Source: an uncultured Gemmatimonadota bacterium
GTDB taxonomy: Bacteria > SM23-81 > DAOVCL01
Reading direction: 5' to 3'
Assembly (NCBI GenBank): GCA_964626665.1
Contig: CAZVGK010000007.1
Coordinates: 24,505 to 88,504, forward strand
DNA: 64,000 bases
This document shows, one piece after another, positions 5,541 to 61,715 of the stretch (positions are counted from its first letter, which is position 1; each line of letters begins with the position of its first letter). The notes under the pieces were generated by a model. That model was not told where the DNA came from. It worked only from the letters and a program-made list of their open reading frames with translations, and ran no database searches. A program made the position numbers and the translations under genes.

Positions 5541-5544
5541 TGGC

Positions 5545-6378
5545 TTACCCCCTTATGGAGAGATAGGCATATCTCGTCCCCTTCTCCTCATCATCAGGGA
5601 CAAAGATTACTTTGTCTCTCCTCTTTGTTGCCTCGAAAGTAGCCACCCAGAGGGATAACTCCTCCCCCCTTATCCTCCTTAAGCGGTAGAGATCGTAGCC
5701 AAATTGTGCCCTTCCGTAACCAATATAATTCGACTTGATGGGATTTGCCTTAAACCTATCCCCTTGCCTGAGAAAGGCAAGCTCTCCCAAAACCCCAACA
5801 ATCAGTGCCCTCTCCCCTTCCCCTCCCCTTAAGGCCCGGTGGTAGGCCTCCTTGAGCAGGGAGAGATAAGAATCGGGCTCAAATGGGCTTCCCTTAAGCT
5901 CCTCCTCAAACCTGAGGATGGAATCTACCACCTCCTGGGGGTTAAGCCTTATCTTCTTCACCGGTTCCGGCCCCCAGGAGATGGCCACCTCCCCCTGCAG
6001 GAAGTTGGGCTTCAGGGAGTAGAGGCCAGCATAGAGGTTAGGATACTGCCCACGCAGCTTAAACCCCTTAGCCTGCAACTCCCCCTCTAACTTCCGGCCA
6101 AAGTCGGATTTAAACTCCTCCTTCCACCGCTTTAACCTCAGCCTCTGATCATCCAGCCAGCGGCTCAAATTGGGGATAAGCTGGCCAGGTTCCAACCCAG
6201 CCTTGAGCTTCTCCATCTTCAAAAGGAGGGCCTCCATAACAAAGGGATTGGAAGAGGGCTCCCCCTCCATTCTCCCATATCCAGCCAGAAGATTGGCCAA
6301 CTCCTTGGCCCTCCTCTGAAACCTCAAAAGCCTATCCCTTAACTCCTTCATATTCCCCCTTCTATGGCCTTCAGTCAA
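5545..6378 (-). CDS. hypothetical 277-aa protein, first gene of the four-gene operon (unrecognised family)
   Basis: Long ORF co-directional and nearly contiguous with the two ATPases and the helicase. I recognise no motif in it. Confidence 0.6.
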   Translation of the reverse strand: MTEGHRRGNMKELRDRLLRFQRRAKELANLLAGYGRMEGEPSSNPFVMEALLLKMEKLKAGLEPGQLIPNLSRWLDDQRLRLKRWKEEFKSDFGRKLEGELQAKGFKLRGQYPNLYAGLYSLKPNFLQGEVAISWGPEPVKKIRLNPQEVVDSILRFEEELKGSPFEPDSYLSLLKEAYHRALRGGEGERALIVGVLGELAFLRQGDRFKANPIKSNYIGYGRAQFGYDLYRLRRIRGEELSLWVATFEATKRRDKVIFVPDDEEKGTRYAYLSIRG

Positions 6379-18381: not shown

Positions 18382-19797
18382 GTGAAAAGAATCATATTTT
18401 TTCTGATGGTCTCCATTCTGGCCCTGGGCTTAACCCTTCCTGCCCTGGGGGTTGATCTCACCGGTAAGATAGGGGTAGGGGGATTGGTTTCCCCGGTAAA
18501 GCCCGTGTTGAGCGATCACTCGGATATCTGGGCCGTTGGAGGACAAGGGAAACTACTGGTCAAGTATGGGATCAACAAGAACTTTGCTGTTGGATTAAGT
18601 GCTGGATTTGCCAGGGTCTGGAACGACACTACCACTGGCAGTGATGGGGTTGGCTTCACCTTCCCCAGCCCAAGTGATAAGGCTTCCTTAGTCTGGGATC
18701 TCATTCCTGTAGGGGTAAATGGCTATTACAGCATCATCCCTGACAACCCCAAATTAAACCCTTATGTAACCTTGGGATTAGAGGCCAACATCTGGAAGGT
18801 AACCGATTATAGCACAGGCAATGATGTCCCTATCCTTGACAAGGATGATAATCTCAGGCCGGACTTCAAGGCCACAGAGGTTACCGTTGGGGTCGGTGGT
18901 GGCTTGGAATATTTCGTCAAGGAGAACATAGGGATAAACGGTGGGGTCAAGTTTAACTTCCTCACCGGTTTAGGGGCTGACCTCAGCACTAACACAGATC
19001 TGGTAGACAGAAGCAGGGGCATTGTAGAGGGATTTGCTGGAGTAACCTACTACATCGAGATAAAAAAAGACTCGGATGGAGATGGCATAAAAGACGACCT
19101 TGATGCTTGCCCACTGCAACCTGAGGATTTCGATGGCTTTGAGGACGATGATGGCTGCCCTGACCCCGATAATGACAACGATGGCATCCCGGATATCTCC
19201 GACAAATGTCCCAACGAGCCTGAGGATTTAGACGGTTACCAGGATGATGACGGCTGCCCAGACCCAGATAATGACAATGACGGGGTCTTGGATGTGGAGG
19301 ATAACTGCCCCAATGAGGCAGGACCCGCCTCCAACCATGGCTGCCCCATTGTCGATTCCGACAAGGATGGGGTATTGGATCCAGATGACCGCTGCCCCAA
19401 CACCCCTATGAGGGTGAAAGTAGACAGGTATGGATGCCCCACCGCGGCCAAGATAGTGGGGAAGTTGGTCTTGGAGGGTGTGAATTTTGCCTCTGGGAAA
19501 ACAAAATTTACTCCTAGTTCAGAGGCCAAATTGGATGAACTGTACAAATCCCTGAAGGCCTATCCTGACTTAAGGGTAGAGATCCAGGGATATACGGATA
19601 GTTGGGGCAGAGCCAAGGCCAACAAGGCCCTTTCTGAGAAGAGGGCAAAGGCAGTGATGAACTACTTGATTAACAAGGGGATAGCCTCCTACAGGCTAAA
19701 AGCTGTAGGTTATGGGGAGGTCAATCCCATTGCCAGCAACAAGACCAAAGCTGGCCGTGCCAAAAATAGAAGGATCGAGATCCTTCCCCTGAAGTAG
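18382..19797 (+). CDS. OmpA-family outer-membrane protein with thrombospondin type-3 (TSP3) Ca-binding repeats
   Basis: GTG start with a GGAGG RBS. Signal peptide, N-terminal barrel, DxDxDGxxDxxD repeats, and a C-terminal OmpA domain. Confidence 0.85.
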   Translation: MKRIIFFLMVSILALGLTLPALGVDLTGKIGVGGLVSPVKPVLSDHSDIWAVGGQGKLLVKYGINKNFAVGLSAGFARVWNDTTTGSDGVGFTFPSPSDKASLVWDLIPVGVNGYYSIIPDNPKLNPYVTLGLEANIWKVTDYSTGNDVPILDKDDNLRPDFKATEVTVGVGGGLEYFVKENIGINGGVKFNFLTGLGADLSTNTDLVDRSRGIVEGFAGVTYYIEIKKDSDGDGIKDDLDACPLQPEDFDGFEDDDGCPDPDNDNDGIPDISDKCPNEPEDLDGYQDDDGCPDPDNDNDGVLDVEDNCPNEAGPASNHGCPIVDSDKDGVLDPDDRCPNTPMRVKVDRYGCPTAAKIVGKLVLEGVNFASGKTKFTPSSEAKLDELYKSLKAYPDLRVEIQGYTDSWGRAKANKALSEKRAKAVMNYLINKGIASYRLKAVGYGEVNPIASNKTKAGRAKNRRIEILPLK

Positions 19798-24144: not shown

Positions 24145-26148
24145 ATGATAAAGAAGATAATCCTATTTTCCCTGCTTTTTTTCTCCTTAACCTGTGGTAA
24201 GGCCTGGTCATTCCTGGGATTTCAGGCCAGAAGCTTAGGGATGGCCGGGGCTTACTCGGCCATAGCCAGAGGGGAGGAGTCGGTCTACTTTAACCCTGCC
24301 AACCTGGGTCTCTCAGATGGCCCCAGCTTCTCCCTTTCCTTTCCCTCCTTTGGCCTTGGCCTGGGAAACAACAGCTTTACCCTCTCCGATTACAACCGCT
24401 ACAACGGCAGCTACCTCTCGGATGGGAACAAGAGGACCATCTTACGCAAGATACCCTCAGCGGGCCTCTCTCTGGATAGCGGAACCGAAATCGGGCTTCT
24501 TGGCCTCTCCTACAAAAACTATGCATTCTTCATTCAAGGCTCAGGGGCAACCTATATCACCCTACCTCGTGACCCCTTTGAACTTATCCTCTACGGGAAC
24601 GAACTGAACAGGTCATACGAGATCGGCGATGTCGATGGGGAGGCCTTGGCCCAAGCAACCGCAGGTTTCTCTGCGGCTAAACGAATTAACCTTAAGGGGT
24701 TTAACGAATTCAGCGTAGGGGCGAGTCTGAAGTATCTCAGGGGACTATACTATGCAGAGGTGACCAGGTCAGGGGGGAGCATATTGACCACGGAGAGCTC
24801 GATTGAGGGGGAGGGGGAGATAGTCTATCGTCACGCTCAGGGCGGACAGGGGTTTGGTCTGGATTTTGGCGCTGCCGGCTCCTTCGGCAGGGGCTGGACA
24901 GTAGGACTAACCCTCTTCAACCCCTGGGGGTCCATCAAATGGAGCAGAGAAACCGAGGAGGGTTTTTTCACCTTTAAGGCTGAATCCTTAACCGTCAGCT
25001 CAACCAATAAGGATACCCTGGTGACTTCAGATGATTCCAGCTATGAGATCGGTTCCTTCAGATTACATCTCCCCTCTTACCTGAAAATGGGGGTTTCTCG
25101 CCGTTTTCGCAAGTTCCTCCTTGGCTTTGACTACGAGCAGGGGTTTAGAAACACAGCGGGAGTAAGCACCACACCAAGGCTGGCGGCTGGGGTCGAATAT
25201 AACCTCTTGAAGTGGCTGCCCCTAAGGGGAGGTCTGGCCATAGGGGGGAGGGAGGGATTCAACAGCGCGCTTGGTCTGGGCCTCCATTTAGGAAGCTTCC
25301 AGTTGGATGTCTCCACATCCAGCAGAGGACTGGTCTTTACCCCCTGGAGTAAAGGGATTGGCTTAGCTGCCTCCTTTGGCCTCAGATTTGGCAAAACTCC
25401 CCAGGCCATCACTGATCAGGACAAGGATGGCATCCCAGATAACCTTGACCTCTGTCCACTCCAGCCTGAAGATCTCGATGATTTTGAGGATACCGACGGA
25501 TGTCCAGACCCAGATAACGATAAAGATGGCATCCCTGACATCTCCGACAAATGCCCCAACGAGCCTGAGGACATCGATGGCTACCAGGATACCAACGGTT
25601 GCCCCGACCCGGATAACGACCGGGATGGGGTCTTAGATGTGCAGGACAATTGTTCCAATGAAGCAGGCCCAGCCTCCCATCAGGGCTGCCCTATACCTGC
25701 GGATTCTGATAGTGACGGAGTGCTGGACCCTGATGACCACTGCCCCCACACCCCAATGGGGGTGAAGGTAGACAGGTATGGATGCCCCACTGCAGGCAAG
25801 ATCGTGGGGAAGATGGTGCTGGAAGGAGTGAATTTTGCCTCTGGGAAGGCTAAATTTGCCCCTGGCTCAGAGACCAAGTTGGATGAACTATATGAGTCTC
25901 TGAGAGCCTATCCTGAGATAAGGATAGAGATCCAGGGATATACGGACAGTCGGGGGAGAGCCGAGGCCAACAAGACCCTTTCCCAGAAGAGGGCAGAGGC
26001 AGTGATGAACTATCTGATTAACAAAGGGATAGCCTCTTACAGGCTCAAGGCTGTAGGTTATGGGGAGGCCAACCCCATTGCCAGCAACAAGACCAAAGCT
26101 GGCCGTGCCACAAACAGGAGAGTAGAGATCCAGGTATTCCAACAATAG
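24145..26148 (+). CDS. OmpA-family outer-membrane protein with TSP3 repeats (paralog of 18382-19797, with a larger N-terminal barrel)
   Basis: Signal peptide. The C-terminal ~240 aa (TSP3 + OmpA module) are nearly identical to the gene at 18382. Confidence 0.85.
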   Translation: MIKKIILFSLLFFSLTCGKAWSFLGFQARSLGMAGAYSAIARGEESVYFNPANLGLSDGPSFSLSFPSFGLGLGNNSFTLSDYNRYNGSYLSDGNKRTILRKIPSAGLSLDSGTEIGLLGLSYKNYAFFIQGSGATYITLPRDPFELILYGNELNRSYEIGDVDGEALAQATAGFSAAKRINLKGFNEFSVGASLKYLRGLYYAEVTRSGGSILTTESSIEGEGEIVYRHAQGGQGFGLDFGAAGSFGRGWTVGLTLFNPWGSIKWSRETEEGFFTFKAESLTVSSTNKDTLVTSDDSSYEIGSFRLHLPSYLKMGVSRRFRKFLLGFDYEQGFRNTAGVSTTPRLAAGVEYNLLKWLPLRGGLAIGGREGFNSALGLGLHLGSFQLDVSTSSRGLVFTPWSKGIGLAASFGLRFGKTPQAITDQDKDGIPDNLDLCPLQPEDLDDFEDTDGCPDPDNDKDGIPDISDKCPNEPEDIDGYQDTNGCPDPDNDRDGVLDVQDNCSNEAGPASHQGCPIPADSDSDGVLDPDDHCPHTPMGVKVDRYGCPTAGKIVGKMVLEGVNFASGKAKFAPGSETKLDELYESLRAYPEIRIEIQGYTDSRGRAEANKTLSQKRAEAVMNYLINKGIASYRLKAVGYGEANPIASNKTKAGRATNRRVEIQVFQQ

Positions 26149-30253: not shown

Positions 30254-32149
30254 ATGAGTAAGGATTATCGCTCCTGGGCCCAGATTGACCTCAAAGCTCT
30301 GGCCGAGAACATAGCGCAGATCAGATCCTTAGTGGGGCCAAATGTGAGGTTGCTTCAAGTAGTCAAGGCCGACGGCTATGGTCATGGGGCCTTGCAGGTG
30401 GCCAAGGTGGCCCTCTCCAATGGTGCCTATGGGTTAGGGGTGGCAAACGCCGAGGAGGGGATAACCTTAAGGCTGGGGGGTATAGAGGCTCCCATACTCA
30501 TCCTCAGCCCTTCCCTACCTGCTGAGGTCACTGAGATAGTAGAATATGGTCTCTCCCCTACCCTCTCCGACGACACCATTCTTTTTCTCCTCTCCCAAGA
30601 GGCCCTGAAGGCGGGTAGGGAGGTTATCGTCCATATTGAGGTGGATACCGGCATGGGCAGATCGGGCATCAGGCCTGAGGAGACAGGGGGATTGGCCAGG
30701 GAAATCCTCTCCCAGAATGGTCTAAAGCTGGGAGGCATCTTCTCCCATTTTGCCTCTGCTGACTTAGTGGATAGGGACTTCTGCTGGCTTCAGTTAGAAA
30801 GGTTTAGGGCGGTAATCGCCGAACTAAAGAGGGAGGGGATAAATTTTCCCTTAAAACATATAGCTAATAGTGCGGCCACCCTGGAGTTCCCCGATGCTTA
30901 CTTCGATCTGGTCAGGCCTGGGCTTCTCAGTTATGGCCTCTACCCATCTGAGAGGGTTAAAAAGAGAATAAAAGTTAAACCAGTCCTCAGCTTCAAGACC
31001 AAAGTAGCCCAGATAAAGGAGATCATTCCCGGTGAGTCGGTTAGCTATGGAAGAACCTGGAAGGCCCAAGCCCCCACTATGGTCGCCGTTATCCCCGTAG
31101 GATATGGGGATGGATACGATTTCCTCCTCTCCAATAATGGGGAGGTTCTGGTCAAAGGGAAAAGAGCTCCCATAGTGGGAAGGGTGACCATGGATCTGAC
31201 TATGGTGGATATAACTGGTATCCCTGGGGTTAAGATCGGGGACGAGGTGACCATCATCGGGAGGGATGGAGGAGAGGAGATAACTGCGGGGGAGGTGGCC
31301 GAGAGGGTGGGCACCCCGAGCTATGAGGTCCTCTGTCTTATTGGTAAGAGAGCGCCGCGGGTCTATACCCAGGGGGAGAGGGTTGGGGGGGTAAGGCGGG
31401 CTTTAAGGAGGAAGGATGTCTTAGACCAGCTTATCCCCCCTGGGGAGATGGAGGAGATGATCAAGGATTTCCTCCAACTGAGGTTGAATGAGGAGGTGGG
31501 GGAAGCCTTATACCATAGCCTCCTCAAGGCCATCTTTGGCCAGAAGGGGAGAGAGCTCCAGTATCGTCGGGACCTCAGGCATATAATCCGGTTTGCCGAG
31601 GAGGGGGAGGGATACAAGGTCAAAGCGAAGATCGAATATTATAAGATCCTCCGCTCTGACTCCTTCTATGTGGCCTGCGCCAGGGATGAGGCCAGTCTGT
31701 CCCGCTACTTTCAGGATCCCCGCTGTGAGTACAGATGGCTTTTGGAGAGCGGCAAGATAGGGGCCGCTGATTTCCAGGTCAAGGAGGTCAGGGTCGATGG
31801 CCGGAAGCTTGCCCCGCGCGAGGCCAAGCTAACGGAGAGGGGCTACGAGATCTACTTCCAGGAACCCAACCTCGGCCCTAAGCTCAACCAACCGGTAAAG
31901 ATGGAGATTGAGACCCAAACCTGGCAGGCCAAGGAGAACAGGGAACTTCCCATATATATCGTCTATCCCACCAAGGGAATGAAGGTAACCTTTGACTATA
32001 CGGAAACCGGCATTGCCGCCGTTAAAGCCATCAGCTTTTTGGCCGGCAAGGACAGATACCCGCAGAGAAGTACTTCTCAGGGGAAGTCAATTACCCTTTC
32101 CTTGGAGGGTTGGGTCTTCCCCAACAGCGGAATAACCTTTGTCTGGTAA
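30254..32149 (+). CDS. alr: alanine racemase fused to a ~260-aa C-terminal domain of unknown function
   Basis: The N-terminal 370 aa have the PLP-binding motif VVKADGYGHG and the racemase barrel. The ORF then continues a further ~260 aa (RRALRRKDVLDQL...GITFVW) with no stop. Confidence 0.8.
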   Translation: MSKDYRSWAQIDLKALAENIAQIRSLVGPNVRLLQVVKADGYGHGALQVAKVALSNGAYGLGVANAEEGITLRLGGIEAPILILSPSLPAEVTEIVEYGLSPTLSDDTILFLLSQEALKAGREVIVHIEVDTGMGRSGIRPEETGGLAREILSQNGLKLGGIFSHFASADLVDRDFCWLQLERFRAVIAELKREGINFPLKHIANSAATLEFPDAYFDLVRPGLLSYGLYPSERVKKRIKVKPVLSFKTKVAQIKEIIPGESVSYGRTWKAQAPTMVAVIPVGYGDGYDFLLSNNGEVLVKGKRAPIVGRVTMDLTMVDITGIPGVKIGDEVTIIGRDGGEEITAGEVAERVGTPSYEVLCLIGKRAPRVYTQGERVGGVRRALRRKDVLDQLIPPGEMEEMIKDFLQLRLNEEVGEALYHSLLKAIFGQKGRELQYRRDLRHIIRFAEEGEGYKVKAKIEYYKILRSDSFYVACARDEASLSRYFQDPRCEYRWLLESGKIGAADFQVKEVRVDGRKLAPREAKLTERGYEIYFQEPNLGPKLNQPVKMEIETQTWQAKENRELPIYIVYPTKGMKVTFDYTETGIAAVKAISFLAGKDRYPQRSTSQGKSITLSLEGWVFPNSGITFVW

Positions 32150-32156
32150 GGGAAAG

Positions 32157-33575
32157 ATGAAAGCCTATGTAAATGGAAGATGGATAGAGGGAGGGGGAAG
32201 CTTCCCGGTCCACAATCCCTATAACAACCAACAGATAGGATCTGCCCCTCTGCTCTCCCCTCAAGATGTGAGGGAAGCGGTACACGGAGCTAAAGAGGGC
32301 TTGGCCCAGATGGATTCCCTCTCCGCGTACCAACGTTACCAGATACTCCAGAGGGCGGCCTTAGGGTTAGAGGAGGCCACAGAGAAGTTCGCCCACCTCC
32401 TCTCCCTGGAGGTGGGTAAAACTATCAGGGAGGCCAGAGGGGAGGTCTCCCGGGCAATCTAGACACTTACCCTCTCTGCAGAGGAGGCCAAGAGGATTGG
32501 GGGGGAGGTGGTTCCCTTCGGCTCTGCCCCCGGTTCCGGGGAGAGGATTGGCTTCTACCTCAGGGTTCCCATTGGGGTTGTTGCGGCCATTACCCCTTTC
32601 AACTTTCCCCTTAACCTGGCTTTACACAAGGTGGCCCCGGCTTTGGCTGCCGGCAATAGCGTCATCCTCAAGCCCGCCTCGGCCACACCCCTCACCAGTG
32701 AGCTCCTCTGCCAGCTTCTCTTAGATGCTGGCCTCCCTTCCAGGGCGATTAGCCTGGTCACCGGAAAGAGGGAGGAGGTGGGGGAAGCCTTGGTCAGGGA
32801 TGAAGGGGTAAGGATGATTACCTTCACCGGATCTCTGGAGGTAGGGAAGAGGATAATGGGGGGATTGGGCTTGAAGAAGGCCACTATGGAGTTGGGTTCC
32901 AACTCTGCGGTAATCGTGGAACGGGATGCCCTCCTCTCAGAGGCCCTCCCCCGGATAAGGGATGGGGCCTTTGCCCTTGCCGGACAGGTCTGCATCTCGG
33001 TGCAGCGGGTCTATGTGCAGGAGGGGATATACGATGAATTCTTAAGTGGCTTTATCCCCTTAGCCCAAGAGCTAAAATCGGGAGATCCCTTAGATGAGAC
33101 AACCGATATGGGGCCGATGATCTCTCCCCAGGCCGCGCAGCGGGCCAGGGAATGGGTGGAGGAGGCCATGGAAAGGGGAGGGAAGCTCCTTTGCGGTGGG
33201 GAGATAGAGGGGAGTTTTATGCAGCCCACCGTGCTGGCCCAAGTCTCCCGGGACTGTCGGGTTTGCTCCCAGGAGGCTTTTGCCCCTCTGGTGGTGGTCA
33301 ATCCCTATACCGAGCTTGATGAGGCCATTGAAGAGGTAAACAATTCCATATATGGCCTGCAGGCAGGGATATATACACAGGATCTCGATCGGGCCCTCAA
33401 AGCAGCACGCAAAATAGAGGTGGGAGGGGTAATCATAAATGACATCCCCACTTTCCGGGTTGATCTTATGCCCTATGGTGGGGTAAAAGGAAGCGGCTTA
33501 GGCCGGGAGGGACCTAAATATGCAAGGGAAGAATTCACCCAGCCAAAACTTGTCTCCATCAAGCTCCATAAGTAG
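32157..33575 (+). pseudogene. NAD(P)-dependent aldehyde dehydrogenase interrupted by one in-frame TAG (32460-32462). It may be a pseudogene, a sequencing error or stop-codon readthrough.
   Basis: ORFs 32139-32462 and 32508-33575 are in the same frame, separated only by a TAG at the ALDH position ..EVSRAI*TLTLSAEEA. The rest is intact (catalytic-Cys region CISVQRV present; length ~472 aa). Confidence 0.7.
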
Positions 33576-34734
33576 GGTTCTGGTCATCGTCTTAGATGGA
33601 GTGGGGGTGGGAGAGCTACCCGATGCAGGGGAGTACGGGGATAAGGGCTCAAATACCTTAGGCAACCTGGCCCGAGCCGTGGGTGGGCTGAATCTGCCCA
33701 ACCTGGAGCTTATGGGCCTGGGGAACATCATCCAGATAGAGGGGGTGGCACCTCAACAATCCCCCCAGGCGAACTTCGGTAAACTCCGGGAGAGAGCCCC
33801 GGGGAAGGATTCCACCTCCGGCCACTGGGAGCTGATGGGATTAACCCTAAAGAGGCCTCTTCCCACTTATCCCCATGGCTTTCCCCCTGAGCTAATTGCT
33901 AAGTTTGAGTCGAGGATTGGAAGGAAAATCTTAGGAAACTATCCCGCCTCCGGAACCCAGATCATCCAAGAGTTAGGGGAGGAACACCAGCGGAAGGGAT
34001 GGCCCATCGTCTATACATCTGCGGATAGCGTCTTCCAGGTTGCCGCCCATGAGGAGATCATCCCCCCGGAGGAGCTATACCAAATCTGCTTACAGGCCAG
34101 GGAGATCCTCACCGGCGAAAATGAAGTGGGGAGGGTGATCGCCCGTCCCTTTTTGGGCCAACCCGGCTCCTACTTTAGGACGGAGCGGAGGAGGGATTTT
34201 TCCCTACCCCCCCCGGGGGATACAGTCCTCAACCTATTGAAGAGAAATGGCTATCCGGTGGTAGGAATAGGCAAGATCCCCGACCTCTTTGCCGGGAAGG
34301 GGTTTACCAAGACCGTAAAGGCCAAGAGAAACCAAGAGAATATGGCCAGGGTCCTGGAGACCTGCCGCCGGGTAGAAAGGGGCTTTATATTCACCAACCT
34401 GGTGGACTTCGATATGCTCTGGGGACATAGAAACAACCCTCAGGGATTTGCCCAGGGATTGGAGGAATTTGATAACTGGCTGCCCCATCTCTTAGAGATT
34501 CTCACACCCTCCGATCTTCTCCTCATCACCGCAGACCACGGCTGCGATCCTACCACCCCCAGCACCGACCACTCCCGGGAATATGTGCTCGTCTTAACTT
34601 GGGGTAAGGGGATAAGATCTGGGGTGGACTTAGGAACAAGGGATACCTTTGCCGACCTGGGAGCGACCATATCCCAGGCCCTGGGGATCAGGGGAACAGG
34701 GGAGGGAAGGAACTTCCTGGGGGAGATAGTTTGA
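33520..34734 (+). CDS. deoB: phosphopentomutase
   Basis: VLVIVLDGVGVGE metal-binding N-terminus, ~400 aa. The true start may be the TTG at 33550. Overlaps the ALDH end. Confidence 0.8.
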   Translation: MQGKNSPSQNLSPSSSISRVLVIVLDGVGVGELPDAGEYGDKGSNTLGNLARAVGGLNLPNLELMGLGNIIQIEGVAPQQSPQANFGKLRERAPGKDSTSGHWELMGLTLKRPLPTYPHGFPPELIAKFESRIGRKILGNYPASGTQIIQELGEEHQRKGWPIVYTSADSVFQVAAHEEIIPPEELYQICLQAREILTGENEVGRVIARPFLGQPGSYFRTERRRDFSLPPPGDTVLNLLKRNGYPVVGIGKIPDLFAGKGFTKTVKAKRNQENMARVLETCRRVERGFIFTNLVDFDMLWGHRNNPQGFAQGLEEFDNWLPHLLEILTPSDLLLITADHGCDPTTPSTDHSREYVLVLTWGKGIRSGVDLGTRDTFADLGATISQALGIRGTGEGRNFLGEIV

Positions 34735-35005: not shown

Positions 35006-35398
35006 ATGTCTCGAAAATTTGAAGAGCTAATAGAAAGGGCAAGCCAGGCCCAGAGCAAAGCCTATGCTCCCTACTCCGGGTTCAAGGTAGGAGCGGCTAT
35101 CCTCACCGAGGATGGCGAGATCTACAGTGGCTGCAATGTAGAGAACTCCTCCTATGGGCTAACCATCTGTGCGGAGAGAGTGGCCCTCTTCAAGGCAGTC
35201 TCCGCGGGTAAACAGAAGTTTAAGCAATTGGCTATCTTCTCCGATAGGCTGGCCTACCCCTGTGGGGCTTGCCTCCAGGCCTTGGCCGAGTTCTCCCCGG
35301 GGATGGAGGTCTGCTTAGCCAGCAGCCAGGGGGAGCTAAAGAGGTTCAATCTTAAGGATCTTCTTCCCCAACCGTTTAGAATGAACAATAACCAATGA
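35006..35398 (+). CDS. cdd: cytidine deaminase
   Basis: C..AE......CAERVALF.. zinc-binding motifs. 130 aa. Confidence 0.85.
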   Translation: MSRKFEELIERASQAQSKAYAPYSGFKVGAAILTEDGEIYSGCNVENSSYGLTICAERVALFKAVSAGKQKFKQLAIFSDRLAYPCGACLQALAEFSPGMEVCLASSQGELKRFNLKDLLPQPFRMNNNQ

Positions 35399-36526: not shown

Positions 36527-39500
36527 TCAATCACAGTTGGGGTTCCCTCTTTTTGTTAAGTCTACCTCTTTGGTTTCTCCCCCTCTCAGTTCAAAGACCT
36601 CATCCCTAACCTGTACCTTCATTGGTTCTGCACCGCCGGGAAGGGCTTTAATTTTCAGATTGTCGTTACCAATGTCCAGATCAAGCCAATGCCCCCGATA
36701 TCGAAGATGAAAACTCACCACCTTTATCTCATCAGGGAATGAAGGATTAAACCTCAGTATATCACCGCGTGTCTCCAATCCTGTATAGCCCCGGGCAAGC
36801 ATATCCACACAGCCGGCCATGGCCCCGAGATGGATACCTTCCGGAGTGGTGCCGCCCTGAATATCGGCCATGTCTGTCTTCAGGGCCTGATTAAAGAGTT
36901 CCCACGAGCGTTCCCTGTCCCGCCGAGCAGCCACCCAGGAATGGACAATCCAGCTCAGGGACGAGCCGTTGGAGGTGCGTTTCAGGTAATAATCGATGTT
37001 TTGGGGGATGGTTTCATATTCAAAGGGGTAGCCAAGTTGGTTGAATAGCTTTTCCAGTTCCTCCGCGCTAAGGAGATAAAAGAGCATCAGGACATCGGCC
37101 TGTTTGGAGACCTTGTAACGGTTGGGAGTGTCCCCCTCAGCCTCCAGTATACGGTCCAGACGCTGGATATTCCCATACTTCTTTTGATAACCTTCCCAGT
37201 CGAACTCCTCCAGGCGGTCATATCCCTCAAACTGGCTGATGATCCCGCCATCGTGAAAAGCAACCCGCATCTTGTGGCTCATCTCTTCCCATCTCTCTAT
37301 CTCCGCTTTTTTTATGTCGAGTTTTTCGCATAGCTGCCTCCACTGCTCTTTAGGGAGAAGGTGAGGCAGCTCCAGGGCGCGGTTCATCACAAAGGCCACC
37401 ATAATGTTGGTGTAGGCGTTGTTGTTCAGGCCAGGCTGATCGGCTCCGGGATAGCTGTCATGATATTCGTCTGGGCCCATGACGCCATGGATCTCGTACC
37501 GTTCAAGCTCCCGGTTATAGGTGGCTATACTGGCCCAGAAACGGGCGATCTCCAGGATCATCTCACCTCCGTAAAAGGACAAAAAATCTAAGTCGTTAGT
37601 GATCTGGCAGTACTGCCATATATTATGGACAATGGCAACATTTATGTGCCGCTGCAGATGCGAATTGTCCGGGTGCCAGCGGCCTGATTTTGGGTTGAGA
37701 TGGACCAGTTGGGTCTCCTCCCTGCCGTTACTTGCACTCTGCCACGGATACATAGCCCCTTTGTAGCCAAGCTTGCGAGCGGCCCGCCGGGCCTCTTTGA
37801 GACGGCGATAGCGATACATTAGCAAGGTCCGGGTAATCTCAGGAGCCCTATAGTTAAGAACAGGGAAAATAATCATCTCATCCCAGAATATGTGTCCCCG
37901 GTAAGCCTCGCCGTGCCAGCCCCGGGAGGGCATCCCCACATCAATATCGATGGAGTGCATAGAAGAGCTTTGCAGAATGTGGAAGCTGTATAAACGGATG
38001 GTTCTCTGTATTTCATGATCAACTGCGGAGGCACTGAATTTCGCCCTGATGTCAAACCTGCGCCATTGATGTTCCCAGGTAAGGCTATGAGACCGAAGCA
38101 AACCGGCGAATCTTTCGGCGGCCACAACCACCTTCTCCGCCTCCAGGGCGCACTCAGAGACAGCAGGATCCCGGGAGGTAAACAAGGAAACCGTCTTTTC
38201 TATGGTGAGGTCGGCCCCTCTGGTAAGCTCTACTATAAAGTGTTGGGCAATATAGCCGGGCTCCCTCACTGGTTTAGGTTCAACAACCCAGGGTTCGCTA
38301 TCACGGAAGATTTCAGTCCTTGCCCCCAGCGCCACTTCCAACCTAGATTGATTGGTGCGCACCTTCAAAAGCATGCTGTTCTCATTAATCCTCCTGCTTT
38401 CCACCGGCTTCAGGTGCTTGTTATTCAAGTTCTTATAACGTTCCACGCCGGAGTTGGTGATTCGACCATCCAAGGCGGAGCTAATCTCTAATTTTCCAGC
38501 CCAGTTTAACGGCGTAATAACGGTCTCCAGGCCCGCCAAATGCATGTCTCCTGCGTGGACCAGGCGGCGCTGGAGCAGCCTAGTTTCCCTGCCTTTCTGG
38601 TCCCGGAACCGCACCGTCCGGTGGAGTACCCCTCTCTTGATATCCAGATATTGATGGTAGCAAAGTATCTTCACCGCCTCCAAATCAAACCATTCCTCAT
38701 CCGGGATGCGGAAATTGAGGCAAAGCCAGTTAGGCATATTGACCAGGTCCTCGTTTTCTATGGTGCGGCCAGGCATTTTTGTCTTCAGGCGGTTGTAGCC
38801 TCCGGCCAGGTAGGTTCCGGGATAGTGGACATTACCCGCGTTTGCCTCTGGCGCTGCCCCCCGGGTGGCAAAATAACCGTTTCCCAGGGTACACAGCGCC
38901 TCCCTCAGACCTTCTTCCTGGGGATCAAACCCCTCATATGTCAGGGACCAACTCCTCCCTTCTTCCAGCGCTGGGGTCAGTTTCTGCAGAAACTCCAGAA
39001 CCTGATTGGGGGATTCCAGCCTGGACACAGCCTCCGTGGATCGGGAACCTTCCCCTACCACAATGGCTATGCCACGCCCGGCAAGTGCCTCAAAGGCATC
39101 CTCATCGGTGATATCATCTCCTATATAAAAGGGAAAGATCCCTGGACCAACAAGATCCAAGGTGTCCAGAAGCCAAAAGAGTGCTTCTCCCTTATCCCAG
39201 TCGATGTCGGGCCTCAGTTCATAGACCTTCTTCCCCTCTGCCTTGCGAAGCTTGGGATAAAGTCCAATCATCTGATCTACAACCTCTTCCACCGAACCAA
39301 CCTGTTTGGCCTCAACATTTCGGTAATGAACCGCAATGGAAAATCTCTTGCGCTCCACCTGGGCGCCATCGATACTCGTAAGTTGCTGTTTCAGTTTGTC
39401 TTCTACCTCATCGATCACCGGGAGGAGTTTTTTGGCTTCATTATGCTCCAACCTAAGACCTCCCGGTCCCTCTATCTCGAAACCGTGGCTGCCTGCATAA

Positions 39501-40501
39501 TAGAGGTTGTCAATATCCACCCTCTCTTTCACATCTTTAAGGCCTCTTCCACTTATTATCGCTACGAGGCATTGATCGGCCAAGCTGGTAAGCGTTTTTC
39601 GCATCTCTTCAGAGAGGATGGCATCCTCGGGATGGGAGACAATCGGGGTTAGTGTGCCGTCATAATCGAGAAAAACGACTACCTCTTTGCCTTCTATCTG
39701 CTCCTTGATTTTCTCAAAGGAGTCCAGGGCATGGGGAAGTTCCCTTATCTCGGCCGCCATTTCTATTTCCGAAAGGTCCTCGACTACCAGGTCGGCTCCC
39801 CCCTCTTTCAGCGCTTTTTCCTGGTGTGCACGATCTACTCCGATAACCAGGCCAAAGTTCCCTTTGCTTCCCGCCTGAACCCCGGAGACAGCATCCTCCA
39901 CCACCACGCTCCTTTCCGGTTTAACCTTCAGCCGCCGGGCTGCCTCCAGAAAGATGTCCGGGTCAGGTTTGCCCATAAGGTCAAGGCTCTCCGCGTCCAC
40001 CCCGTCCATCTTAGCATCAAACAGGCCAGTGATACGGGCCGCATCCAGGATATTAACACAGTTCTTGCTGGAAGAGACGATGGCAGTCTTAAAGCCTCCC
40101 TTTCTGAGCCGGTTGATCAAGTCTATGGTGGATTCATAGACCTCCACCCCTTCACTTTTCAGCCGCTTCAAGAACAGCCGGTTTTTCCTGTTCCCCAGTC
40201 CGCAAACCGTTTCTTCATCGGGTGAATCAGCAACATTGCCGTATGCAATCTCTATGCCCCGGGAGATAAGAAAGCTCTTCACTCCGTCATAACGGGGTTT
40301 GCCATCAACCCATTTGCGATACTCTACATCGGAATCAAAGGGTTTAAATGTTCCGCCCTCGCCGTGTTTCTGCAGATATTCATCGAACAGTTCCTTCCAT
40401 GCCTGAGCATGAATTTTGGCGGTTTTAGTAACTACTCCATCCATATCAAAAATAACCGCGTCATACCCACCTCTGGAGATTTTATGTTTCTTATTACTCA
40501 T
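36527..40501 (-). CDS. trifunctional fusion: HAD beta-phosphoglucomutase + trehalose-6-phosphate phosphatase (OtsB-like) + GH65 trehalose/kojibiose-type phosphorylase
   Basis: N-terminal VIFDMDGVVTKT (beta-PGM HAD motif I), a second HAD domain VVFLDYDGTLTP (TPP), and a large central/C-terminal GH65 region. 1324-aa continuous ORF. Confidence 0.8.
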   Translation of the reverse strand: MSNKKHKISRGGYDAVIFDMDGVVTKTAKIHAQAWKELFDEYLQKHGEGGTFKPFDSDVEYRKWVDGKPRYDGVKSFLISRGIEIAYGNVADSPDEETVCGLGNRKNRLFLKRLKSEGVEVYESTIDLINRLRKGGFKTAIVSSSKNCVNILDAARITGLFDAKMDGVDAESLDLMGKPDPDIFLEAARRLKVKPERSVVVEDAVSGVQAGSKGNFGLVIGVDRAHQEKALKEGGADLVVEDLSEIEMAAEIRELPHALDSFEKIKEQIEGKEVVVFLDYDGTLTPIVSHPEDAILSEEMRKTLTSLADQCLVAIISGRGLKDVKERVDIDNLYYAGSHGFEIEGPGGLRLEHNEAKKLLPVIDEVEDKLKQQLTSIDGAQVERKRFSIAVHYRNVEAKQVGSVEEVVDQMIGLYPKLRKAEGKKVYELRPDIDWDKGEALFWLLDTLDLVGPGIFPFYIGDDITDEDAFEALAGRGIAIVVGEGSRSTEAVSRLESPNQVLEFLQKLTPALEEGRSWSLTYEGFDPQEEGLREALCTLGNGYFATRGAAPEANAGNVHYPGTYLAGGYNRLKTKMPGRTIENEDLVNMPNWLCLNFRIPDEEWFDLEAVKILCYHQYLDIKRGVLHRTVRFRDQKGRETRLLQRRLVHAGDMHLAGLETVITPLNWAGKLEISSALDGRITNSGVERYKNLNNKHLKPVESRRINENSMLLKVRTNQSRLEVALGARTEIFRDSEPWVVEPKPVREPGYIAQHFIVELTRGADLTIEKTVSLFTSRDPAVSECALEAEKVVVAAERFAGLLRSHSLTWEHQWRRFDIRAKFSASAVDHEIQRTIRLYSFHILQSSSMHSIDIDVGMPSRGWHGEAYRGHIFWDEMIIFPVLNYRAPEITRTLLMYRYRRLKEARRAARKLGYKGAMYPWQSASNGREETQLVHLNPKSGRWHPDNSHLQRHINVAIVHNIWQYCQITNDLDFLSFYGGEMILEIARFWASIATYNRELERYEIHGVMGPDEYHDSYPGADQPGLNNNAYTNIMVAFVMNRALELPHLLPKEQWRQLCEKLDIKKAEIERWEEMSHKMRVAFHDGGIISQFEGYDRLEEFDWEGYQKKYGNIQRLDRILEAEGDTPNRYKVSKQADVLMLFYLLSAEELEKLFNQLGYPFEYETIPQNIDYYLKRTSNGSSLSWIVHSWVAARRDRERSWELFNQALKTDMADIQGGTTPEGIHLGAMAGCVDMLARGYTGLETRGDILRFNPSFPDEIKVVSFHLRYRGHWLDLDIGNDNLKIKALPGGAEPMKVQVRDEVFELRGGETKEVDLTKRGNPNCD

Positions 40502-51202: not shown

Positions 51203-51655
51203 GTAATCGGTGATCGGGTTATCGGTAATCGGTGAGAAGAAATGGAACATGCAAAAAGTTTTCGGGATTTAGAGGTTTACAAATTGGCTCGGCAGTTATC
51301 ACGAGAAATCTATGAGATCTCTAAGGACCTTCCTAAAGAAGAAATGTTCTCACTGACAGATCAAATCAGACGTTCATCGCGATCTGTCGGTGCACAAATT
51401 GCAGAGGCTTGGGCAAAACATCGGTATGAAAAACACTTTATCAGTAAGCTGACAGATGCTGATGGGGAACAGCAAGAAACACAACACTGGATTAAAACGG
51501 CCAGTGATTGTAATTATTTGTCAGCGAAGCAAACCAAAGATTGGCTGGATCGCTATGCTTCAGTGGGACGAATGTTGAATTCAATGATTAACAAAGCAAC
51601 TCAGTTCTGTTCTTAAGCGTTAAACCCGATCACTGATCACTGGTTACCGATTACC
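51203..51655. mobile_element. low-G+C cassette carrying a four-helix-bundle protein gene, flanked by imperfect inverted repeats (ggtaatcggtgatcgggtt... / ...aacccgatcactgatcactggttaccgattacc)
   Basis: IRs at ~51203-51240 and ~51620-51655. Interior G+C is visibly lower than the flanks. Confidence 0.5.
51242..51616 (+). CDS. four-helix-bundle protein (TIGR02436 / 23S-rRNA-IVS-protein / Avd-like family)
   Basis: 124-aa sequence with the characteristic ..EVYKLARQLSREIY...RRSSRSVGAQIAEAWAK.. signature. Confidence 0.7.
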   Translation: MEHAKSFRDLEVYKLARQLSREIYEISKDLPKEEMFSLTDQIRRSSRSVGAQIAEAWAKHRYEKHFISKLTDADGEQQETQHWIKTASDCNYLSAKQTKDWLDRYASVGRMLNSMINKATQFCS

Positions 51656-51870: not shown

Positions 51871-56236
<4,366 letters not shown>

Positions 56237-57071
56237 GATGAGGGAAGAACGGACAAAGCTCCTCCTGACCTGGCTGGGGTTATCCTTTATGGTTATCTTC
56301 TGCCTCACCCCCTTTTTCTTTATGATAATGGTCTCTCTGAGCAAAGACCCCACATTCCTATCCTTGCAGAAGGTTAAATATCTCCTCACCCTAAGGAACT
56401 ATATTCACATCCTGAGAGCGGGATCGCTTCACTTCCCCGCCTACTTGAGAAATAGCCTGATCATCTCCGCCCTGGTGGCAATCTTTGCCACATTTGTGGC
56501 CGGGCTGGCTGCCTATGCTTTTTCCAGGTATCGTTTTCCGGGAAGGGTTCTCATCCCCCTGGGAGTCTTGGGAATCTCTATGTTCCCCCAGATAAGCGTA
56601 GTGGGCTATCTTTTCAAGATAATGACGGGATTGGGCTGGATAAATACCTATAATGCCTTGATTTTCCCTTATATAGCCTGGGCCTTACCCCTTGCCCTCT
56701 GGATAGTCCTGAGCTATTTTATGCAGATCCCCCAGGAGCTGGACAGGGCCGCCTTGGTGGATGGGGCGTCCCGATTTCAAACCCTCTATAAGATAATCTT
56801 CCCCTTGGCATTACCAGGGCTCTTCTCCACCGCATTGTTGGTCTTTATCTTCTCCTTCAATGAGTTTCTCTTTGCCCTGATGCTTACCACAGACCAGGCG
56901 GCCAGGACCATTCCGGTGGGGATTGCCCTCTTCCAAGGCCTCCATGGAGAGATACCCTGGGGGCATATTATGGCGGCTTCCACAATTTCCTCCATCCCTC
57001 TGGTTCTGCTTACCGTTGGCTTTCAGCGCTATATCATTCAGGATTTAACCAAAGGGGCATTGAAGGGATAA
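56237..57071 (+). CDS. sugar ABC transporter permease (MalG/ThuG-like)
   Basis: ATG at 56237 directly after the TGA of the previous permease. Six transmembrane segments. Confidence 0.75.
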
Positions 57072-57074
57072 CCC

Positions 57075-57700
57075 CGGATTAGGCAACAAGGAACCACGAG
57101 ATAATGTGCTGTCAGGAGTTACCTCCTGACAGCCCTTGAGACCTCTGGTTGTGCTGGTAGGGCTCTGCCCTGACGGAAATGGTTCTACCGCACTTTAGTG
57201 CGGATTATTATGGAGTGCGTCAACCCTGTTGACGTGGGCTGTGACAGGAGTCACAGCACTCCAAATAGACTATCCGTCCGAGCCGTCAGAACCCTTGTTC
57301 TGACGACAAAGGAGAAGGTGGGAGAAAAGGGAAATAAGTTGGTAATTTGGAAAGTCAAGACTAAAGATGTGACCCCATATTTCACCATATTTCTCCACCT
57401 TATTTGCCCAAATGACCCACATTGTAGGGGTTTGATTCATCAAACCCGCTGCGGTGAACGAGGGGTTTGGAGTGAATCCCGAATTATCGGAATTCCACTT
57501 GACTTTTAATTGAATTTGTGGTAATTTTACGTTTCGGAATTTCTAAGAAATTCAAAAACGTAGGGGGATGTTTGAAGGGGGTATGCCCCCTTCAAGGGTG
57601 ACAGCGGAGCAATCCGAGCTGGCGTAGGATTGCGGAGCGCCATAGGGCCGGTGAGGCCCTCTGGAGAAGTTAGCGACCGTAAGGGAGCTAAGTTCTGGAT
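57075..57700. repeat. intergenic repeat cluster (gtgctgtcaggagttacctcctgacagc 57106-57134; gtagggctctgccct; 20-mer 57184-57203; gtcaacagggttgacg..gtcacag; 115-bp repeat 57283-57395, shared with 61021-61130; gaagggggtatgcccccttc 57581-57600; ttagcgaccgtaagg 57655-57680)
   Basis: Direct matches. ORF 57198-57509 is considered spurious. Confidence 0.8.
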
Positions 57701-57710
57701 AAGGAGGTGA

Positions 57711-57965
57711 TTGAAGATGAAAACTCAAACCCTGATGCAACAGCTTGAAGGTTTTGAAAAGGATATGGATTGGTTAAACAGTAGGTATGAGGAGCTGAAG
57801 AGTAAATATCCGGATGAGTTCGTGGCAGTTTTAAGAGAAAACATTGTAGATCATGATAGAGATTTGAGCAAGCTGATGGGCAGATTAGAAACCAGATTTC
57901 CCGAGGATTTCCCAAGAATTGCGATAAAGTTTGTGAGCACAAAGAGAGTTGAGTTGATCCTATGA
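57711..57965 (+). CDS. small protein, DUF5678-like, partner of the downstream aspartic protease
   Basis: 84 aa. Its ATGA overlaps the next gene. Lower G+C. Confidence 0.5.
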   Translation: MKMKTQTLMQQLEGFEKDMDWLNSRYEELKSKYPDEFVAVLRENIVDHDRDLSKLMGRLETRFPEDFPRIAIKFVSTKRVELIL

Positions 57966-58420
57966 AAATCAAAGGGAGCTGGGGTGAGTTTGATGCCCCT
58001 TACCTGAGGGGAGCGTTTATTTGTCACAAACTGAATCTTATGAGATATATCGATCTCTTGATTGACACAGGCGCAAGCAGCACAACTATTTTAGATAATG
58101 ACGCGCTAAGATTGGGTATAGATTATAACAAGATAGAAAAGTTGGCAGAAGGAACAATGGGAATAGGTGGGTCTGTTGACACTTATGTTATACCAGATGT
58201 AATGATAGCATTCAGAACTATGGAAGGGATCCACAGAGAGAAATTTGGTAATGTATTTGTTGTCAGACACATGCCCAGAAACAGAGAAGAGGAAGAAAGA
58301 ATAAAAAGAATACCATCACTTTTGGGCAGGGATTTTCTCAATAAGTACAGCTTATTTTTGAATAGGAAGGATAAGATCGTCACAATTAGTGATAAATCGG
58401 GGGCAGCTCTCAGAAAATAG
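57962..58420 (+). CDS. retropepsin-like (clan AA) aspartic protease
   Basis: LIDTGASSTTI active-site motif. 152 aa. Confidence 0.65.
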   Translation: MKIKGSWGEFDAPYLRGAFICHKLNLMRYIDLLIDTGASSTTILDNDALRLGIDYNKIEKLAEGTMGIGGSVDTYVIPDVMIAFRTMEGIHREKFGNVFVVRHMPRNREEEERIKRIPSLLGRDFLNKYSLFLNRKDKIVTISDKSGAALRK

Positions 58421-58440
58421 ATATTGGTATCTTTCTGAAG

Positions 58441-58700
58441 GTTACTTACTTATGGCAAAACCTCTGCGCATTGAGTTGGCCTGGAGCGCTGTATCACCTC
58501 ACAGACCGAGGGAACGGGCGGTAGGTGATCTTTCGCTATGAGCGTGATCGGCGACATCACATGCTTGCGTATGTCAGGGGACCAAGCTCATGTATCTGGC
58601 TCAGAGGTAGAATGGGAGATCAATGTGCCAATTGGCAAGGAGCTTAGGAGGAATAGATTCTGTGTTCTGGTGTTCTGGGGACACCATACTTGTTTTTTAA
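58441..58700 (+). pseudogene. decayed N-terminal remnant of a COG1943 IS200-like / RAYT-type Y1 (HUH) transposase
   Basis: Frame 1 gives MAKPLRIEL. The +1 frame continues PGALYHLTDRGNGR, then TAG. This matches the conserved (R)PLRIE.PGA.YHVT.RGN.R N-terminus of this family. Downstream, ..HHMLAYV..P...IWL looks like a degraded HuH (HAYVLMPNHVHLL) region. Confidence 0.5.
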
Positions 58701-58779
58701 CATAAGCGTAGAGTGAGAACACGGTCAGCTCTTGATATTTGACCAATACTTCTATAGGCTTGTTTAAGACTTAGAATTG

Positions 58780-59045
58780 ATCAGGAAAGGAGGAATCACC
58801 ATAAAATTGTAAAAACCTTTTTTCCCAATTTTCTCCATACTATTTCGTTATTTTCTCAAGCTCATCGGTCGTCCCTTCAACAAATCGCATATCTGTTGCT
58901 CGGACCTTTAAAATCTTCATACCTATCATCCGTCTAAACGCTTACCTTCCCTCTGAGGAATGCCCTCGGCGCAATCGGTTTAATCCTCTTCTTTCTACTT
59001 GTACTCAAGCAAACGGTCGCTTATATTTTACTCATAGGAAGATAT
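58780..59045. repeat. ~260-bp direct repeat, copy 1 (copy 2 at 60095-60545); the pair flank a toxin-antitoxin pair
   Basis: ataaaattgtaaaaacctttttcccaattttctccatactatttcg...caatcggtttaatcctcttctttct...cgcttatatt is shared with copy 2 at roughly 85-90% identity by eye. Confidence 0.7.
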
Positions 59046-59433
59046 GTCCCCAAGGGTTTTCGATCTTCCTCCTGTATTCGTTGACCAACTTTTGCCTGCC
59101 TAAATAGAGGAGAGAGAATCTATGCAGGATGGTTAATATGCGGGGTCATCGGCGAGGTTAACCCCAAAAGTTCCTTGACCGTGGGCTCCTGAAAGAGTAT
59201 ATTGGTATGTAGTTGGGAGAAAGATGGTGATAAGCAAATGCAAATGGATAATGAGGTGGCAGAAGAGAGCTTCTGCCACCTCAAACAGAATTTTTCCGCT
59301 GTTATCCAGTCAAGAGCGGGGTGTTATACGGAAACCATATGAGCCGTAGTTCGGTAAAAAATATACAACTTGCACACTGGCAGCCAAAAAATAAATTCGA
59401 GTATATGTGCTGCCCCACTATAAGGAGGTAAAA

Positions 59434-59658
59434 ATGAATCCAAACGATATTTCCGTATTCGACCTAAGTCCACCGGAGAAGTTACAGTTGGTGGAAGACC
59501 TCTGGGATGATCTCGCGGCTACGCCTTCAGAGGTTCCTGTGCATGAATGGCAAAAAGAAGAGTTGGCTCGCCGAAAAGCTAACTTGATGAGCAAGCCGGG
59601 TTCGGGGCTTTCGTGGGACGAAGTCAAACGCAGGATTCGAACTCGCTATGGCCGTTGA
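59434..59658 (+). CDS. antitoxin, putative addiction-module component (TIGR02574-like)
   Basis: GGAGG RBS + ATG at 59434. LSPPEKLQLVEDLWDDL motif. Confidence 0.65.
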   Translation: MNPNDISVFDLSPPEKLQLVEDLWDDLAATPSEVPVHEWQKEELARRKANLMSKPGSGLSWDEVKRRIRTRYGR

Positions 59659-59884
59659 ACTAATAATCGCGCAGGAAGCACAACAGGACGTCGATGAGGC
59701 ATATAGCTGGTATGAAGATCGTAGACCTGGCTTGGGGGAAGAGTTTCTTACCTGTGTGGACGCGTGTATTCAGGCGATCTGTCGTGTGCCCGAACTGTAT
59801 GCCAAAGTCCACGAGAAGATAATCGTCTACAGCATCTTTCATACATCCCGGGATTCAAAAAAGTGGAGGGATCGCTTGGTTTGA
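59648..59884 (+). CDS. ParE/RelE-family toxin, possibly carrying an internal deletion
   Basis: Overlaps the antitoxin by 11 nt. ParE-like N-terminus and a C-terminal ..IFHTSRD. About 12-15 residues expected before the final strand appear to be missing. Confidence 0.5.
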   Translation: MAVELIIAQEAQQDVDEAYSWYEDRRPGLGEEFLTCVDACIQAICRVPELYAKVHEKIIVYSIFHTSRDSKKWRDRLV

Positions 59885-59974
59885 CTTGCCAATCTTCGCC
59901 GAACCTGTCAGTCCACCTGACTGGTGTTCCGCTACGCCTCACACCGGCAGGTGACTTTATTGTTAGCAACTATA

Positions 59975-60010
59975 AAAAGGGGGAGTAAGTGAGCTCCTCC
60001 CTTTTTTGTT
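59975..60010 (+). terminator. rho-independent terminator (aagggggag..ctcctccctt + TTTTTTG)
   Basis: Stem-loop followed by a T-run directly after the toxin gene. Confidence 0.5.
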
Positions 60011-60094
60011 GGCTCCCCGGGTCAGTGGGGTCTGCCCTTGACATTGGATAAACACTTGCATAGACTTGTTTAAACTTACAAGTAATCAGAGAGG

Positions 60095-60545
60095 GGAAAG
60101 CCCCCCATAAAATTATAAGAACCTGTTTTCCCAATTTTCTCCACACTATTTCGTGTCTGTCCGGAAATACCCATATTTCTTGTCATTCCGGCGATCTTTA
60201 AGCCGGTATCTACTTAAAATCAGTAATGGATTCCCGCTAACGGTAGGCGGGAATGACAAATTGGGACAGACGATATTTCCTTATTTTCTCAGGTTTATCG
60301 GTTGTCCCTTCAACAAATTGCATATCTGTTACCAAGTATCCATTGTTTGAACCTTTAAAACCTTCATGCCCATCATCCGTTCTAAAGGCCCTCATCCCCT
60401 CTGACGTATGCCCTCTCCACTTTGATTAAACCCAATTCTTTGGGCTTTTTGGTGTGCTCAGAGTATGTCCTCAACGCAATCGGTTTAATCCTCTTCTTTC
60501 TGCTTGTGCTCAGATAAGCCGCCGCTTATATTCTACTCATTAGTG
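60095..60545. repeat. ~260-bp direct repeat, copy 2, interrupted by a ~125-bp hairpin insertion (60160-60285) with GTCTGTCCGG-type terminal inverted repeats
   Basis: Aligns with 58780-59045 on both sides of the insertion. The insertion has tgtctgtccgg...ccggcg / cgggaatgacaaattgggacagacg inverted ends, related to the element at 35822-35975. Confidence 0.65.
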
Positions 60546-60579
60546 AAATACGGCTTAAGTTCCCCCCTCAAATCTGCCG

Positions 60580-61700: not shown

Positions 61701-61715
61701 GATAGATTGTTATCC

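Follow-up and report, generated by a model that had tools for sequence, protein, structure and literature searches.

A probable young amber allele of an otherwise conserved aldehyde dehydrogenase gene in an uncultured Gemmatimonadota bacterium

The aldehyde dehydrogenase (ALDH) gene described here is, very probably, a young nonsense allele of a normally functional gene, produced by a C-to-T change at the codon for Gln102 (CAG to TAG). It lies within a 64,000-nt stretch of DNA from an uncultured Gemmatimonadota bacterium, which we analyzed as a whole and refer to as the window. On our best reading, the allele is either null or leaky, and it is the sole allele found in public assemblies of this strain. 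Translation of positions 32157-33575 on the forward strand yields 472 codons with a single internal stop, the TAG at 32460-32462 (codon 102), and the frame closes with a terminal TAG at 33573-33575. The parts of the gene and its neighbors are as follows.

30254..32149, forward strand: alanine racemase gene, the upstream neighbor, which ends 8 nt before the ALDH start.
32157..32459, forward strand: ALDH codons 1-101, the segment before the premature stop, with the start MKAYVNGRW as in the orthologues.
32460..32462, forward strand: premature amber TAG, codon 102; CAG or CAA (Gln) in the orthologues.
32463..33575, forward strand: ALDH codons 103-472 with the natural TAG terminator; holds all catalytic residues.
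32508..32510, forward strand: in-frame GTG, 45 nt past the TAG, which gene callers assign as the start of a 355-aa C-terminal fragment.
33550..34734, forward strand: phosphopentomutase gene (deoB; NCBIfam NF003766, E 1e-153, from ORF residue 17).
35006..35398, forward strand: cytidine deaminase gene (cdd), the last gene of the conserved ALDH-deoB-cdd neighborhood.

The initial annotation of this DNA proposed that two open reading frames, 32139-32462 and 32508-33575, belong to one frame and together encode a full-length ALDH. Both frames are present and in register with each other, and when codon 102 is replaced by X, the 472-codon translation matches the Pfam family Aldedh from end to end (PF00171; residues 9-466, profile positions 1-461 of 461, 511.6 bits against a cut-off of 23, E 2.1e-153), which bears out the proposal. 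Gene callers, for their part, list the product of 32157..32459 as a 101-aa "Aldedh" fragment. The translation also aligns without gaps across the stop to solved ALDH structures, namely, ALDH21 (5mz5, E 4e-110) and the Methanocaldococcus lactaldehyde dehydrogenase (3pqa, E 8e-107). The catalytic residues Asn149, Lys172, Glu245, Cys279, and Glu373 are all intact, and all of them lie 3' of the premature stop; four of these (N149, E245, C279, and E373) occupy invariant alignment columns, and the catalytic Cys, the general-base Glu, and the oxyanion Asn are thus still encoded. As to the substrate, the nearest NCBIfam model is the equivalog NF040648 (lactaldehyde dehydrogenase, Methanocaldococcus type), for which the protein scores 506.5 bits against a cut-off of 650. 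We therefore rejected membership in this model and assign no substrate. The gene order is more informative about the likely role. Relatives with only 57-60% identity, one of them a TA06 genome, still have the ALDH linked to phosphopentomutase and to either cytidine deaminase or pyrimidine-nucleoside phosphorylase. Because this linkage persists in such distant relatives, the enzyme of intact genomes probably serves nucleoside or pentose catabolism.

The nature of the ancestral codon can be read from the orthologues. A search of 5.8 billion proteins returned four closest orthologues (P0001-P0004; 87, 86, 82, and 81% protein identity), each of them 472 aa long and uninterrupted; these were followed in the ranking by the window's own 355-aa fragment and then by homologues of at most 62% identity. 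No full-length protein more than 87% identical to the window ALDH was found in that search. At the DNA level, the gene is 1419 nt long in all five genes, which align codon for codon without indels. Codon 102 is CAG in the orthologous loci L007, L009, and L011 and CAA in L010 and L012, and the codons that flank it are conserved (...CGG GCA ATC on the 5' side and ACN... on the 3' side). Over 119 aligned homologues, this column holds Q in 103, E in 9, N in 3, L in 3, and H in 1; a stop is absent at this position from all 119, including the four at 81-87% identity. The comparison shows that the ancestral codon, as reconstructed from these sequences, was CAG or CAA, and the Gln codons of the orthologues imply that the TAG arose by a single C>T transition from CAG. 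The initial annotation had regarded the interrupted position as conserved and had expected Asp there. The first part stands, but the residue is Gln in 103 of the 119 homologues, and Asp occurs only in distant ALDHs such as ALDH21. It had also considered that the two parts might be separately conserved genes; what we found in the orthologues are single 472-aa proteins.

Selective constraint on the gene shows no sign of having been relaxed. Nei-Gojobori dN/dS ratios between the window ALDH and its orthologues range from 0.09 to 0.12 (dS 0.79-1.04) and are alike for the parts of the gene before and after the stop. Tajima-type relative-rate comparisons, with L012 as the outgroup, gave 19 versus 21, 20 versus 20, and 24 versus 41 amino acid changes unique to the window and to the respective orthologue, that is, no rate acceleration in the window ALDH. 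Of 131 columns with at least 90% conservation in 115 more distant homologues, the window deviates at four and the intact close relatives at one to four; the sole deviation specific to the window is G205R (GGG>AGG), in the TGxGxxxG stretch. The observed dN of 0.076 compares with about 0.075 expected at the background ratio, suggesting, as a rough inference, that any neutral period would be short compared with the divergence from the nearest relative. A long-standing pseudogene was considered and rejected, given that there is no excess of dN, that indels are absent, and that the relative rates are balanced. The lack of decay in the rest of the gene implies instead that the mutation is young. These results (no indels, low dN/dS, catalytic residues present) agree with the earlier description of the gene as otherwise intact. 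They also favor the recent nonsense mutation, one of the candidate explanations that had been put forward for the TAG, because the orthologues carry CAG or CAA, a single C>T step separates these from the stop, and nothing else in the gene has decayed.

Base-calling or assembly error had been named as another candidate, and a one-base difference from the orthologous codon is indeed the kind of change that an error would produce, so that the true genome would carry CAG. However, the same base recurs in other assemblies. The DNA of JGI contig 3300031365|Ga0307443_1000042 (103.8 kb) is 100% identical to the window, with the TAG included, and the gene is likewise 100% identical, again with the TAG, in the Logan assemblies of runs SRR9705745, SRR8557033, and SRR9700625, the contig from SRR9705745 having been seen in 13 samples. 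BLASTN alignments to the window extend over 4.3-21.9 kb per contig at 100% identity, with no mismatch. The same TAG is present in loci L001 and L003-L006, and the pair of 101- and 355-aa "Aldedh" proteins is called in every contig that spans the whole gene; the records list the 101-aa fragment for 10 contigs and the 355-aa fragment for 13. These contigs were located through exact-protein look-up of the phosphopentomutase and alanine racemase neighbors, and seven further similar places exist; the contig from a second JGI sample (3300031624) contains only the last 570 nt of the ALDH, 3' of the TAG. Being 100% identical, the copies represent one clonal population and have no evolutionary depth, so they do not gauge how long the allele has persisted. 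An intact counterpart was also sought. Exact look-up of seven repaired full-length alleles (Q, E, K, Y, W, L, or S at codon 102) found none on record, two pattern scans of metagenome contigs for either allele (TAG or repaired) gave zero matches, showing that this species is absent from that collection, and in a scan of genome contigs with the repaired ALDH, the relatives among the matches listed were all at most 55% identical. With the TAG recurring in 100% identical DNA, both in a JGI contig and in other runs assembled by Logan, we no longer entertain an error as a serious candidate and consider an artefact of sequencing, base calling, or assembly very unlikely.

We then asked what is known of TAG as a codon in this DNA. 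In a non-overlapping ORF set of the window, TAA closes 18 frames, TGA 14, and TAG 14 (the premature one counted); TAG thus ends 13 of the 45 other window ORFs (~29%; greedy ORF set), and it terminates the ALDH itself in all five lineages. The earlier statement that TAG is used here as a normal stop is well founded on both counts. Of the roughly 70 genes called in ~84 kb of contig, none but the ALDH is split. Other same-frame ORF pairs in the window are antisense or shadow ORFs of real genes or else the tandem BrxD-like paralogues at 2913-5540; the latter pair, which meets at 4262/4263, was examined as a possible second interrupted gene and rejected, as an N-terminal ATPase region is present in both ORFs. 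The surrounding DNA is chromosomal, not phage, and carries housekeeping genes (lpxB, lpxK, kdtA, holA, lptF/G, secA). Judged by SecA, the bacterium belongs to the FCB group, and its nearest named relatives, Zixibacteria and KSB1, are 64-68% identical in this protein. Neither the window nor 83.8 kb of the contig yielded a tRNA gene, no Rfam family matched in the window, and we know of no deviation from the genetic code in the host lineage. A stimulatory RNA structure was not detected either: the 100 nt after the TAG (32463-32562) fold no better than shuffled sequences (z 0.12), and the segment around the stop (32440-32540) has a z-score of +1.79 against shuffles. As a separate observation, the intact orthologues L007 (4650-4690), L010, and L011 have a strong hairpin within the coding region, ~55-90 nt past codon 102 (z-scores of -2.75, -2.47, and -1.30); the equivalent segment of the window (about 32515-32555) folds differently and no better than shuffles, which may be due to chance.

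A stop codon in an intact gene could also be one that is translated. It is conceivable that the UAG at codon 102 is decoded at a useful rate, by a near-cognate tRNA-Gln or by an unlinked amber suppressor tRNA, so that Gln is inserted and the full-length enzyme is made. Apart from the TAG, the gene has no fault and no sign of relaxed constraint, TAG is the only allele sampled, the stop sits exactly at a Gln position, and the base that follows it is A. In Escherichia coli, UAG followed by A is a relatively weak termination context, and near-cognate decoding of UAG commonly inserts Gln, which here would yield small amounts of wild-type protein. Continued translation of the frame would likewise be favored by the overlap with deoB. 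Some points also count against the nonsense-allele reading: a null allele may cost deoB expression, given that the likely deoB start overlaps the 3' end of the ALDH gene, and, with the TAG as the only fault and no intact allele of the strain, a functional read-through gene would look alike. On the other hand, the stop is not a conserved feature, being absent from codon 102 of every orthologue, there is no RNA structure past the stop, and no tRNA gene lies in the 83.8 kb of contig. As TAG ends ~29% of the window ORFs, an efficient suppressor would extend many proteins. The features that suggest readthrough carry less weight than they seem to, since a CAG-to-TAG change hits a Gln codon by construction, an intact remainder is equally expected of a young pseudogene, and a fresh mutation would just as well explain the lack of an intact allele in the collections. 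Programmed readthrough, the third candidate of the initial annotation, finds no backing in the relatives, in the RNA downstream of the TAG, or in the common use of TAG as a terminator, and we regard decoding of the UAG at a useful rate as unlikely. A related proposal, that the amber codon is tolerated through such readthrough and that the allele is a down-tuned gene held by selection rather than a dead one, strikes us as quite improbable. If it were true, readthrough would keep ribosomes on the frame, as the overlapping deoB start would need, and we would have a modestly interesting case of natural amber suppression that restores the wild-type residue.

Two further alternatives, a reading of TAG as an amino acid by rule and an enzyme made in two pieces, appear extremely unlikely. 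TAG is the codon used for Gln or pyrrolysine in known systems: it is recoded to Gln in crAss-like and other phages (PMC9523058; bioRxiv 10.1101/2021.08.26.457843), and it encodes pyrrolysine in some archaea and bacteria (PMC12626013). Here, by comparison, a general reassignment (of the code-15 type, TAG = Gln) or a pyrrolysine codon would have to be reconciled with just one in-frame TAG over 84 kb and roughly 70 called genes, with a TAG that is a frequent, not a depleted, terminator (~29% of ORFs), with orthologues that carry Gln codons and not TAG, and with a chromosomal housekeeping region, not phage DNA, where tRNA genes are absent from 84 kb. To our knowledge, the ALDHs are not a pyrrolysine protein family. 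As for a functional two-piece enzyme, in which the 101-aa fragment and the 355-aa fragment starting at GTG 32508 would assemble non-covalently, both fragments are open reading frames that have potential start codons, and they are called as two separate genes. Yet no relative is split, and the two pieces lack residues 102-116, including the invariant EEAKR motif. Moreover, the GTG and the purine-rich stretch upstream of it are also found in the unsplit orthologues, which makes them a by-product of conserved coding sequence; in the alignment with these orthologues, the stretch corresponds to the conserved segment that encodes AEEAKRIGGE.

Returning to the young nonsense allele, its formation and effects can be pictured as follows. 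A C-to-T transition would have converted the conserved Gln102 codon CAG into the amber codon TAG. Ribosomes would then terminate after 101 residues, ahead of the cofactor-binding and catalytic core and of every catalytic residue, and the strain would make little or no active ALDH, while the rest of the gene would have had too little time to decay. We infer that ALDH activity is absent or strongly reduced and that the strain tolerates this loss. The GTG at 32508, 45 nt 3' of the TAG, is a possible site of reinitiation, but the 355-aa product would lack residues 1-116, the invariant EEAKR motif included, and would be expected to be non-functional. In practical terms, the 101-aa and 355-aa "Aldedh" annotations are best combined into a single entry that is marked as a pseudogene or nonsense allele.

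The stop may also affect the genes that follow. The initial annotation noted a translational overlap between the ALDH gene and deoB; the overlap exists, but its extent depends on which start codon is used, ATG 33520 or TTG 33550. TTG 33550 is the only deoB start codon common to all five lineages and gives a 26-nt overlap with the ALDH 3' end; it has no obvious Shine-Dalgarno sequence. ATG 33520 would give a 56-nt overlap, but three of the four orthologous loci have a stop codon that closes this frame, which is open only in the window and in L012. The premature stop probably reduces translation of the overlapping deoB, and expression of deoB and cdd would be lowered because of it if deoB depends on translational coupling. 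A side observation concerns ALDH codon 457 (33520-33531). In three relatives, the deoB-frame ATG at -56 is followed by a stop in its own frame (ATG CCA TAG or ...TGA); the window-specific change I457R (ATA/ATT>AGG) abolishes this stop and so opens a deoB ATG start 9 nt past GGGAGGG, a Shine-Dalgarno-like motif. Since the same ATG is open in L012 too, I457R is not clearly linked to the nonsense mutation. Upstream of the ALDH, the order alr-ALDH-deoB recurs in L007, L009, and L010; in L011 and L012, the ALDH is directly preceded by partial ORFs. The alanine racemase has a C-terminal extension of ~257 aa (residues about 375-631) with no Pfam match; its equal length (630 aa) in the orthologous loci L007 and L009 indicates that the extension is conserved in this clade.

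Elsewhere in the window, several features deserve mention in their own right. On the reverse strand, 944-6378 carries a four-gene cluster that includes an unknown protein of 277 aa, two tandem BrxD/SngB-like ATPases (4263-5540 and 2913-4262, in the same frame with only TAA-ATG between them), and a BrxHI/SngC-like DEAD/Cas3-like helicase (944-2932); the cluster resembles a defence module, either Shango-like or BREX-accessory. Just outside the start of the window (in L093) are HicAB-like genes. Positions 57000-61720 form a gene-poor stretch of 4.7 kb with diverged duplicated segments (57283-57383 versus 61021-61121, 92% identity; 58799-59035 versus 60105-60540, 84-92%), at least four copies of a family of ~28-nt palindromic hairpins of the GCTGTCAGG...CCTGACAGC type, small toxin-antitoxin-like ORFs (59407-59884), and an aspartyl-protease-like ORF (57962-58420). 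No Rfam match was found in this stretch, which may consist of mobile-element remnants. An unusually fused set of trehalose-metabolism genes is made up of 36527-40501 (reverse strand), which encodes a 1324-aa fusion of a beta-phosphoglucomutase-like HAD domain, a trehalose-phosphatase, and a GH65 phosphorylase/hydrolase, and of 51871-57071 (forward strand), with an OtsA-OtsB fusion (51871-54084) and a sugar ABC transporter nearby. At 51242-51616 (forward strand), a 124-aa protein matches the "23S rRNA intervening sequence protein" or bAvd-like four-helix-bundle family; no reverse transcriptase or rRNA near it was found in the window. Finally, two paralogous outer-membrane genes of the OmpA family (18382-19797 and 24145-26148) occur within 6 kb and have in common a 707-nt segment (19081-19783 and 25426-26131, 82% identity) that lies in their C-terminal TSP3/OmpA parts.

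Taken together, the ALDH case looks like one of an already known kind, an ordinary recent nonsense allele or pseudogene that calls for no special reading of the code. Beyond correct annotation, it carries little weight; it does offer a clean example of very young gene inactivation in an uncultured FCB-group bacterium, within an ALDH-deoB-cdd neighborhood that is conserved across distant lineages. Compared with the ALDH superfamily (PF00171), the window gene has the full-length match, the catalytic Asn, Glu, and Cys, and the EAFAP motif in common, and it differs by its unique G205R in the conserved TGxGxxxG stretch; among curated models and structures, the closest are NF040648/3pqa, the moss ALDH21 5mz5, and the GAPN-like NADP-dependent non-phosphorylating dehydrogenases. 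With the pyrrolysine TAG of methylamine methyltransferase genes, it shares an in-frame TAG in an enzyme gene that is otherwise intact. There, however, orthologues retain the TAG and pylTSBCD is present in the genome, whereas here the orthologues have CAG or CAA and the protein family is unrelated. Suppression by a supE-type tRNA-Gln(CUA) and phage genetic code 15 resemble it in that a TAG stands at a Gln position and its decoding would restore the wild-type protein, but in our case 83.8 kb of contig yielded no suppressor tRNA, TAG commonly serves as a terminator, only a single TAG is in frame, and the region is chromosomal. The closest likeness is to the nonsense-mutation pseudogenes of bacteria, which equally show one stop inside a conserved domain, one step away from a sense codon, intact orthologues and flanking genes, and no decay elsewhere in the gene. 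Nothing essential separates our case from these, its notable features being that the nonsense allele is the sole one sampled and that the likely start of the next gene lies inside the disrupted ORF.
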